Origin: a virus
Lineage: Duplodnaviria; Heunggongvirae; Uroviricota; Caudoviricetes
DNA length: 40,547 nt
Virus record (IMG/VR): IMGVR_UViG_2617270967_000014
Reading direction: 5' to 3' (one strand)
Shown: positions 3,001 through 6,000 of the stretch, piece by piece
Numbering within the stretch: the stretch's first letter is position 1
How the letters are laid out: each line of letters starts with the position of its first letter
Program-made: the position numbers

Positions 3001-6000
3001 TCTGCACGCTTTTCTTGGTATTGGTAAAATGTTTGCTCACTGGATCAAGGACAGGCTGGGTGAATATGGATTCGTTGAAAATCAAGATTTTGTGATTGCT
3101 TGCCAAAATTGGCAAGCAAAAGGTAGAGGCGGTCACAACCGCAAGGAATACCACCTCACCCTCGACACAGCCAAAGAGCTTGCGATGGTTGACGACTGCG
3201 TCCAATACTGACTATACTCCGCGCCGAGGCCTCGAAAACCTCCCAAAAGCGGATTAAACCAACCCCGTCAGTGTTGGATTTTTTATGCCTGTTATTCAGT
3301 GATAGCACAGTGTGCGGTCACATCCCCGATCAATGTCGGGAGGGCGACGAATACAACACCCGCAAGGGGAATAAGTCCGCGGTATCTTTTGGGCCGTTTC
3401 GAGCCTCCCGGCACCACATCTTGTGGTGGCATTTCTCGAAAAAAGCCAAAGGAGGTCATCATGACCACTCAACTCATCCCTGTGTTTGAAGGTACAATCT
3501 CAAATGAACCTACGCTTCTGGTGAACGCGCGTGATTTGCATGGATTTTTAGAGGTAGGTAAAGATTTTTCTAACTGGATACGGGCCAGGCTAAACGAGTA
3601 TGGATTCGTAGAAAATTTAGACTACATTCTATTTTCGCCAAATTTGGCGAAAACTCCAGGCCGCCGCCGCAAGGATTACCACCTCACCCTCGACACAGCC
3701 AAAGAGCTTGCGATGGTTGAACGTAACGAAAAAGGCCGCCAGATACGCCGCTACTTCATCGAGTGCGAAAAGAAACTTCGCAACATTCAGCCAGTACAAA
3801 CTGAGCAGCAATTCACAACCGAGGAAATCATCCTCCTCTGCTACATGCAACTCTGGATGGAAAAAGCACAACAACTCAGTAAGCAGCTATACCCCGTCAT
3901 GAGAGAACTGAATTCTGATTACTACGGGAAACTGTTTGATCTGGCCTACGAGACTCGTCATATAACCAACCGGACTCGCGACACATTGCTCCGCGAAGCA
4001 GCAAAACTTGATCCCGCCAACTATATGGTGCATAGGGCCAGAAGTATGCTGGCGCAACTAAGAGCAAGACAATTTGAATTCTGAAACCAAAGGAGCTTCG
4101 GCTCCTTTTTTCATGCCTGAAGGAAAGGAAAATGGCAGATATCATCGACAATGCCGCTGAAATCGAAGAATTGCAGCGCAATCTCTCCCTGCAAAAATAC
4201 AAATCCGATAGTAATGCCCCATCTGCTACTCATTGTTGCGAGTGTGGCGATCCGATAGATGAGCGGCGACGCCAGGCTGTTCGCGGATGCCGAACTTGCG
4301 CCAGTTGCCAGCAGGATATTGAACTTATCAACAAACAGAGAGGTGTGAAGTGAGCATAGACACCACTATAACGATCGATACGACCCTCAACACAGGTCTG
4401 GCGCTTCTTGGTTATTTTTACATTATGTTCTGCGCCGGGCGGTGGCTATCGCTGTTGTTACTGAAAAAATGGAATAAATGCCGTAAGCAGGATCAACGCC
4501 AGAAGGCAATGAATGCGTTTTCCGAAGCCTTCGGGATTGACAGCATGGAGCCAGGAGGTCCAGCTCACGTAATTAGCAGAGGTGACGTTGTAATTCTTGT
4601 ATACCGGAGCGAAGAGAAAAATGAGCGAGATTAACTATCAGGTACTGCGTGAAAAGGCAGAAAAAGCAACGCGTGGTGAGTGGTCGCTCGAATATGGAGA
4701 GAACCGATTTGATGGTGATGATGCACTAATTCATCGCGAGGCTGCTGGATATATTCCCATTTGCAGAATTGAAGGAGCACATCCTGAAAGCGGTTTCGAT
4801 GAAGATTTCCAAATGGAACAGCAGGCCAATGCTGAATTCATCGCCGCAGCCAATCCGGCTACCGTGCTGGCACTGCTGAATGAACGGGAAAGAAACCAGC
4901 AATACATCAAACGCCGCGACCAGGAGAACGAGGAAATTGCTCTTACGGTTGGGAAGCTGCGTGTTGAGCTTGAGGAAGTAAAACAACACGCTGAAGAATT
5001 ATCCGAAACCAAGGCTGTTCGTAACCAATGGCGGCCAGATATTTGCCCAATAACCGGACGTACATTTTTCATGTGGATTGAGCATCCAACATTGGGAAAT
5101 GTGCCGACATATGGTGGCCCATTAGATAGTTACACCATTCCAACAAAGGACGGTGACGGTGAGTTTTCATGTGAGCGTTACGATCATGATTTTGGCGGTT
5201 GGGTAGAAAGCGAATGTCTTGGGTTATATCTGATTGATGATAGAGAACAATGCAGGGTCTACGAACTGGAGGAACGCGTTAAAGAGCTGGAAACGCGGGA
5301 AGTTCATTTGCCGACTCGCTACGGCCTTCGATATGGACATCCGATAAATGATGATGAGCGCCACGTCATGATACCTAAAGAAAATGGCAGTTGGCTTTAC
5401 CTGATTGACCTAGAACACGCATTACGCGTCGCTGGCATTCGCATCAAAGGAGAGTGATATGGCATTAACACACCGCGAACTCTGTCAGATTGCGTACAAG
5501 TTCCTTAAGCGCAACGGGTTCAAGGTTTGTTTTCATGACCGCTTTATAGCTGTAACCAGTACCGGAGAACAGCCAGATGCTATGGGATTCAGAAATTCAG
5601 CATCATGCCTGATAGAGGCGAAGTGTTCTCGTGCTGACTTGTTAGCAGATAGAAAAAAGCGTTTTCGTAAAAATCCGTCTCTTGGAATGGGCGACTGGCG
5701 ATTCTTTATTAGTGAGCCGGGAATTATTTCAATTGAGGATTTACCACCTGGCTGGGGGTTACTTCACGTTGTTAACGGAAGAGTACGGAAAGTACATGGG
5801 TGGCCCAAGGGTAATTGCTGTTGGGGTAATCCTGACGATAAGCCATTTACTGGAAATAAGCAGGTTGAATGCGATTACATGTTATCTGCATTAAGGCGCA
5901 TGGAGTTGAGAGGGCACCTTAATGAAATATATGACGGTGTAATTGTTAATAAGAAAGAAGGAAACGCGGCATGATCACTATTACCAAAGAGCGACTACTG

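Follow-up and report, generated by a model that had tools for sequence, protein, structure and literature searches.

Domain swapping within the Bro-N network was reportedly described by Iyer, Koonin and Aravind in 2002. AntA, ORF6N, Bro-N, P22_AR_C and KilAC are all listed members of this network of swapped domains, and its link to relatives of the P4 CI/seqA system, which were detected with the Rfam C4 and isrK models, has been noted as well (Mageeney et al. 2023, PMC10111431). Here, we analyze a 40,547-nucleotide stretch of viral DNA (IMG/VR record IMGVR_UViG_2617270967_000014, Caudoviricetes; henceforth termed the window) that holds five antirepressor-type genes. Two of them, termed A and B, join different N-terminal domains to related P22_AR_C domains and end in the same terminator. 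The full set, i.e., AntA alone, AntA with P22_AR_C, two genes with ORF6N and P22_AR_C, and a Rha-like domain with KilAC, does not differ in kind from the published network, and the domain swapping seen in A and B is an already known phenomenon of that network. What the window adds are breakpoints at the nucleotide level, a terminator that travels with the C-terminal module, and module alleles (A, B and B2) that share their flanks.

Among the closest described proteins is the Ant of phi24B, the product of a nin-region gene. It shares 82% identity with P22 Ant over its last 104 residues, and deletion of the gene lowers the activity of the late promoter pR' after induction (PMC3064807). P22 Ant and phi24B Ant have the same C-terminal Pfam domain as A and B. 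A further gene of the window, termed C, is of their canonical type (85 bits), whereas A and B, as members of a narrow and diverged subfamily, reach only 31–37 bits against the Pfam model and their activity is putative. In Gifsy-1, the locus PisrK-isrK-orf45-anrP encodes AnrP, the expression of which induces the prophage, and for IsrK, trans-activation via orf45 has been described (Hershko-Shalev et al. 2016, PMC4825925). The P1-like phage RCS47 carries isrK and C4 elements upstream of an ant gene that joins ORF6N to ANT/KilAC. The Pfam name 'AntA/AntB antirepressor' matches the gene names antA and antB of N15, the anti-immunity locus of which, with a cA RNA and the genes antA/antB/antC, was reportedly described by Ravin, Svarchevsky and Deho in 1999 (Mol Microbiol 34:980).

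The shared module and terminator of genes A and B

The whole window is a single lambdoid prophage of E. coli integrated in ynfG, with host ynfF and a ynfG fragment to the left of position ~2500. Gene A (3461–4084, plus strand) adjoins the left attachment end and encodes a protein of 207 amino acids (aa) with an AntA domain (PF08346, 93.8 bits) and P22_AR_C (PF10548, 36.7 bits, residues 114–179). Gene B (21057–21722, minus strand) lies in the nin region immediately upstream of ninB and encodes 221 aa with ORF6N (PF10543, 73.1 bits) and P22_AR_C (30.7 bits, residues 127–190). Both P22_AR_C scores exceed the curated gathering threshold of 22.4 bits, and the N-terminal domains differ, as a preliminary description of this DNA had stated. 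BLASTP aligns the C-terminal 110 residues alone (56% identity, E = 7e-42), a similarity far beyond chance that does not lie in low-complexity sequence. The homology proposed in that description is therefore real; its wording 'near-identical' is not borne out, since 56 of the last 90 residues (62%) are the same. Judged from these alignments, the C-terminal ~95 residues of A and B are two diverged alleles of one narrow P22_AR_C subfamily: an A-type allele formed by the last 98 aa of A (3788–4081, plus strand) and a B-type allele in B (21060–21350, minus strand).

Along the module, identity between A and B changes at the DNA level. The first 22 codons (QFTxEEIILLCYMQLWMEKAQ) are 88% identical, with 15 identical, 5 synonymous and 2 non-synonymous codons; a core of 62 codons reaches 52% (10 identical, 19 synonymous and 33 non-synonymous codons); the last 8 codons are again 88% identical (6, 2 and 0), and the 3' untranslated region (UTR) through the T-run matches in 26 of 27 positions. 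Codons that specify the same residue differ in 25% of cases in the flanks vs. 66% in the core. Synonymous sites of the two cores are nearly saturated. The 5' conserved island, which codes QFTTEEIILLCYMQLWMEKAQ and marks the 5' recombination junction in A, is located at 3806–3869 (plus strand; columns 107–170 of the A/B alignment), and its counterpart in B (QFTAEEIILLCYMQLWMEKAQ) at 21272–21335 (minus strand). A 3' conserved island composed of the last codons (ARQFEF and stop), the 3' UTR and the intrinsic terminator occupies 4062–4111 (plus strand) in A and 21030–21079 (minus strand) in B, where ninB starts 28 nucleotides (nt) beyond it.

The 20-mer GGAGCTTCGGCTCCTTTTTT at the end of this island occurs exactly twice in the window, at 4092–4111 (plus strand) and 21030–21049 (minus strand), a few bases past each stop codon, and not once in 100 shuffles; the identical terminators noted in the preliminary description are thus confirmed. 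In A, a stem (4089–4096/4101–4108) encloses a UUCG loop and is followed by a T-run to 4111; in B, the stem-loop lies at 21033–21052, with a T-run to 21030. RNA folding gives the shared hairpin an 8-bp stem (AAAGGAGC/GCUCCUUU), a UUCG tetraloop and then UUU. By the criterion of a G+C-rich stem-loop followed by a U-run, both hairpins are predicted intrinsic (Rho-independent) terminators; their folds do not stand out from those of shuffled sequences (z = -1.4 and -2.6). Homology between A and B ends exactly after the T-run. A nucleotide-level search for the swap junction, as had been suggested, shows sharp breaks in the linker between the domains and immediately past the T-run.

The module-terminator unit in the lambdoid pool

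A scan of IMG/VR retrieved 80 loci, which together with the window provided 94 genes with the module. AntA occurs in them with A-, B- and B2-type alleles, Bro-N with A- and B-type alleles, and ORF6N with the B-type allele; Pfam confirmed the N-terminal domain types of the relatives, including Bro-N at loci L007 and L008. Pairwise DNA comparisons localize the joints. The gene at L039 is 100% identical to A through approximately nt 330, where it switches to a B-type core (40–57% identical to A), returns to 97% identity at the 3' end and terminator, and is unrelated beyond. Compared with B, the same gene has an unrelated N-terminal domain and is 93–100% identical from the linker to the terminator. 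The Bro-N gene at L007 is 97–100% identical to A from the linker onward, and at L004 and L005 the N-terminal domain of an AntA-only gene that the window also contains is joined directly to an A-type module. A homologue search with the 98-aa module returned 27 matches, mostly fragments, that show the same chimeras. The breakpoints between L039, A and B directly demonstrate the shuffling of the C-terminal module among antirepressor-like genes that had been proposed from the window.

The exact hairpin and T-run are found downstream of 82 of the 94 family genes, with at least five unrelated sequences after the T-run, and the 50-nt 3' island is almost invariant over the A, B and B2 alleles and five downstream contexts. 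The remaining 12 genes are upstream members of tandem pairs and run straight into the promoter and leader terminator of the next cassette. Such tandem cassettes are located upstream of ninB in many relatives (L007–L016, L056 and L062), in the order of an ORF6N or AntA gene with a B-type module and then a Bro-N gene with an A- or B-type module; the first gene is without the shared terminator and abuts the promoter of the second cassette. Megablast with the 60-nt 3' end found matches in 164 of 5426 complete E. coli genomes, a count that underestimates the family because the query holds A-specific bases and the program requires an exact word of 28 nt.

At the protein level, A is 100% identical to P0028, an 'antA/AntB antirepressor family protein' on 195 contigs, and gene B is found in identical form at three loci (L049, L059 and L060). 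At the 50% identity level, the A/B-type subfamily forms no more than 24 clusters among 1.84 billion proteins. P22_AR_C was present in all 18 of the clusters scanned, with Bro-N (6), ORF6N (3), AntA (1) and P22_AR_N (1) as partners. The conserved flanks of the module are the same in every allele and context sampled. These alignments show module and terminator to be one heritable 3' unit that is placed behind AntA, ORF6N or Bro-N by homologous recombination, with crossover points at the conserved first-helix codons and at the end of the terminator. Since A and B occur unchanged elsewhere, their cores are near-saturated and three N-terminal domain families take part, the swap was not an event inside this element, contrary to what the preliminary description had assumed.

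Probable control by antisense RNA cassettes

The window holds four cassettes, those of the AntA-only gene, A, B and C. Their order is a promoter-like site, a1 and b1 targets with a leader terminator, an antisense RNA, a2 and b2 targets, the open reading frame (ORF) and an intrinsic terminator. Each antisense RNA contains two words, each of them complementary to one upstream and one downstream site, and the last target (b2) overlaps or adjoins the Shine-Dalgarno sequence.

In cassette A (plus strand), the leader (3189–3284) comprises a promoter-like site (3189–3218), the targets a1 (CTCGAAA, 3231–3237) and b1 (CCCAAAAG, 3242–3249), which are complementary to the RNA words TTTCGAG and CTTTTGGG, and a hairpin with T-run (3259–3277). 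The C4-like antisense RNA at 3335–3420 is of the sRNA-Xcc1 type (Rfam RF02221, 73.4 bits vs. a cut-off of 53). The second targets (3435–3453) are a2 (CTCGAAA, 3435–3441) and b2 (CCAAAGGA, 3446–3453), the latter over the Shine-Dalgarno sequence. Written as RNA, UUUCGAG would pair with CUCGAAA, and CUUUUGGG with CCCAAAAG and CCAAAGGA. The cassette upstream in tandem (2689–3211, plus strand) has a promoter-like site at 2689–2718, a leader hairpin at 2745–2765 and an sRNA-Xcc1-like RNA at 2803–2887 that scores 51.5 bits, just under the same cut-off. Its AntA-only gene (2927–3211, plus strand; 94 aa, Pfam AntA) has no C-terminal module, is 65% identical to the N-terminal domain of A, and ends at the start of the cassette A promoter. 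A 136-aa ORF from 2801 was rejected as an artefact, as it overlaps the RNA at 2803–2887; the real start is at 2927.

The leader of cassette B (21776–21997, minus strand) starts with a promoter-like site (21997–21968, TTGACA-18-TATATT), followed by a c4-a1b1 element (21974–21922, 47.4 bits), an isrK-type element with terminator (21961–21887, 74.3 bits) and a C4 antisense RNA (21860–21776, 75.1 bits), all three above their Rfam cut-offs. The downstream targets (21733–21771) are a2 (TTAGCAC, 21771–21765) and b2 (TCGAAACG, 21740–21733), immediately upstream of the Shine-Dalgarno sequence. The words GUGCUAA and UGUUUCGA correspond to UUAGCAC and UCGAAACG. Cassette C (19411–20412, minus strand) contains a promoter-like site (20412–20383), a c4-a1b1 element (20389–20337), isrK (20376–20300), a C4 RNA (20274–20191, 66.7 bits), gene C (20138–19455; ORF6N, 70.9 bits; canonical P22_AR_C, 85.1 bits) and a terminator of its own, AAACCCAGCTTCGGCTGGGTTT (19438–19417), which has the UUCG loop of A and B on a different stem. 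Its words are ACGCCAA, with the target UUGGCGU, and CGGUUUC, with the target GAGACCG; the second word has a 7-nt match upstream, and downstream a match of ~6 nt (GAAACC) that was read by eye and falls below the 7-nt cut-off of the scan. Directly downstream of cassette C, and without a leader RNA of its own, lies the gene with the Rha-like N-terminal domain and KilAC (18658–19386, minus strand; Pfam ANT, 110.8 bits; weak Phage_pRha match).

The words of A, B and C differ from one another, and in A and B each word is matched on both sides of the RNA. In B and C, promoter-like sites precede the isrK 5' end by 7 nt, and similar sites lie ahead of the other leaders. Exact 7-mer target-antisense-target triads at fixed positions were found in 33 of 39 distinct leaders, compared with 1.2% of shuffles, and the 39 leaders contain at least eight different specificity words. 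In 18 of 20 sampled loci, Bro-N genes included, a C4 or sRNA-Xcc1 match is present on the gene strand, and in all cases with compared coordinates it directly precedes the gene. LexA/SOS boxes (CTGT-N8-ACAG, at most one mismatch) gave 13 matches in the window vs. 12.6 expected, none of them near the cassettes.

By this anatomy, the cassettes of A, B and C are of the P1/P7 immI and P4 CI/seqA type of control. With immI (c4-icd-ant1/2) they have in common the upstream and downstream targets of the words, the last of them at the ribosome-binding site, and they differ in specificity from one another as P1 does from P7. In contrast to P1 immI, the window has P22_AR_C in place of KilAC, no icd-like ORF, and in A an RNA of the sRNA-Xcc1 type; P1 immI is a single cassette on a plasmid prophage, whereas several cassettes are found here in one lambdoid prophage. 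The N15 locus and P4 CI-seqA (the latter as summarized in PMC10111431), compared from their descriptions, resemble the window in that a constitutive promoter drives a processed small RNA that silences downstream antirepressor or Bro-network genes via complementary leader sites and a leader terminator. Gifsy-1, a close experimental analogue, likewise has an isrK-type leader and terminator, which precede an antirepressor-like gene close to Q in a lambdoid prophage, and its read-through transcripts carry the ORF, a feature we propose to be shared by the window cassettes. Unlike Gifsy-1, the window has an Rfam C4 RNA at the place of orf45 and no isrJ match at the 3' end.

On the analogy of P1 c4, P4 CI, Gifsy-1 IsrK-AnrP, phi24B Ant and P22 Ant, we consider it likely that A and B are payloads of RNA-controlled cassettes that carry a shuffled unit of P22_AR_C module and terminator, with an antirepressor action that we infer. 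In a lysogen, the cassette promoter would be constitutively active and the antisense RNA would be made, leaving the ORF untranslated or prematurely terminated. The 3' terminator would insulate the downstream early genes, which are ninB through Q after B and a dksA-like gene with its neighbors after A. We propose that the terminator is invariant and travels with the module because it blocks constitutive read-through into these early genes. N-antiterminated early transcripts would pass through it, as such read-through of terminators is general lambda biology. After infection or induction, the ORF would be expressed and the protein would speed derepression, with the helical C-terminal module probably providing protein-protein contact, either to a repressor or in self-association, and the N-terminal domain probably binding DNA.

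Putative antirepressor function and the prophage setting

Several observations weigh against this mechanism. The leader RNA of A fits the sRNA-Xcc1 and not the C4 model; the two have a similar two-hairpin-in-stem architecture but are different Rfam models with no shared clan listed. The promoters are consensus matches alone, and an icd-like ORF is absent, as the gap between RNA and start codon (53–54 nt in B and C, 40 nt in A) is too short for an ORF. The function of P22_AR_C is assigned by no experiment or structure. AlphaFold2 models the C-terminal module of A as confidently helical (residues 120–205, predicted local distance difference test (pLDDT) 72–86), with a poor N-terminal domain, and the isolated module at pLDDT 69. 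The module is thus predicted to be a three- or four-helix unit, for which Foldseek against the PDB found generic helical bundles only (best E = 0.4) and a profile search of PDB sequences one irrelevant match. That it serves as a contact surface is speculation.

The relation to the CI repressor adds to these points. In a small sample of 31 gene-CI pairs, the ORF6N gene with the B-type module adjoins four different CI clusters, one and the same CI cluster is found with A-type as well as B-type alleles, and the module allele does not track the type of the neighboring CI. The CI-type repressor of the window prophage, the presumed target (28988–29695, plus strand; helix-turn-helix and S24 peptidase, an ORF with a GQSMEP motif) and that of a prophage in E. 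coli cM8a are unrelated proteins, and the DNA that carries B and C is 99.7% identical between the two prophages. A specific contact of the module with the repressor of its own prophage is therefore unsupported by these data. The prophage is, moreover, defective, as about 13 kb of head and tail genes present in cM8a are absent from the window (junction near 10861–10866), and its antirepressor-type genes may hence currently serve no phage life cycle.

In an alternative that we consider unlikely on balance, A and B do not act as antirepressors. They would instead be Bro-network proteins that either regulate genes by binding DNA or serve as toxic effectors, e.g., by repressing genes of a competitor or by inhibiting growth, and the C-terminal module would be a mere oligomerisation domain. 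The three types of N-terminal domain all come from the Bro network of DNA-interactive domains (PMC10111431), and a KilA domain, that of phi11 Gp07, is reported to inhibit growth (PMC5944126). The independence of module allele and CI type and the prediction of a simple helical bundle point in the same direction. However, relatives with leaders or domains of the same types, namely phi24B Ant, Gifsy-1 AnrP and P1-family Ant, show antirepressor-like phenotypes, and P22 Ant is reported to be active on heteroimmune repressors (PMC3064807), so that independence from CI is not decisive; a broad-range antirepressor of the P22 Ant kind would fit it.

Conservation of the last ~22 coding nt and the hairpin could also reflect a separate RNA function, such as a small RNA derived from the 3' end. 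In Gifsy-1, the isrK-anrP transcript has the stable small RNA IsrJ at its 3' end, immediately after anrP and with a rho-independent terminator of its own, and the near-invariance of the 50-nt island over alleles and contexts would suit such a role. We regard this as very improbable, as an Rfam search over 2400–4300 (E <= 1) returned the leader RNAs and two chance-level hits only, without isrJ, the invariant ARQFEF residues and the terminator account for most of the conservation, and the fold is unexceptional among shuffles. Also very improbable is a recent duplication or gene conversion inside the prophage that copied module and terminator between A and B: despite the identical terminators, the lower synonymous divergence of the flanks than of the core (25% vs. 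66%) and the tandem arrangement of A- and B-type genes ~250 bp apart in related phages, which would favor exchange, the core is 52% identical in DNA with 33 of 62 codons non-synonymous, both genes are unchanged in many other genomes, and the conserved flanks, being common to all sampled alleles and contexts, are a property of the family and not of a local event.

The neighborhood of the cassettes is otherwise that of a lambdoid prophage related to the Stx-type phages POCJ13 and 75/02 Stx. Positions 10861–28542 are almost identical in the cM8a prophage, and the deletion with its junction at ~10861–10866 reaches from a tail gene into that for the small terminase and includes the genes of portal, capsid and tail fibre. 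The immunity region (28542–30966; cro, the CI gene at 28988–29695 and the N-proximal part) bears no relation to its cM8a counterpart but lies between flanks that are 86–99.7% identical, i.e., a classic immunity-module replacement. Two directly repeated copies of ATGCAAAGCTTTGT (2564–2603, plus strand), each with the palindrome AAAGCTTT, lie within the prophage about 70–100 bp from its left end and are candidate recombinase or IHF arm-type sites; the word AGCTTTG is found again at the equivalent place in L016 and L046. Downstream of the A terminator (4132–5457, plus strand) lie a DksA/TraR-type zinc-finger gene, which starts 21 nt past the T-run, a DUF4752 gene and an Ead/Ea22-like gene, all on the same strand. 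An STnc100 small RNA match (16844–17049, minus strand; Rfam, 165 bits) occupies a gap that, by coordinates compared with the cM8a annotation, is just downstream of the Q antiterminator gene, where the late promoter and leader are expected. A sok antitoxin RNA (23838–24012, minus strand; Rfam, 110 bits) adjoins a hokD-type toxin gene, and the cM8a annotation places RelE/ParE-HTH (helix-turn-helix) and Doc-type toxin-antitoxin genes at ~22100–23300, between the replication genes and the nin region.

The ~60-codon core, with its A, B and B2 alleles, might be an exchangeable specificity cassette between two recombination handles, the first-helix codons and the terminator. We put this forward as a doubtful extension of the antirepressor mechanism. 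If it were true, lambdoid phages in polylysogens could re-target antirepressors to other partners by homologous exchange, and orthogonal C4-type RNAs, with their at least eight specificity words, would switch each cassette independently. The biology reported here is in itself largely familiar: the genes are identical to annotated database proteins, swapping in the Bro-N network has been published, and Rfam already contains the families of the leader RNAs. What is useful is the anatomy of four RNA-controlled cassettes in one defective prophage, the co-inheritance of terminator and module, and mosaic junctions that are placed to the nucleotide level. This anatomy provides a clean system in which to ask what P22_AR_C binds and whether the allelic core sets target specificity, and it is relevant to induction cross-talk among Stx-type prophages.

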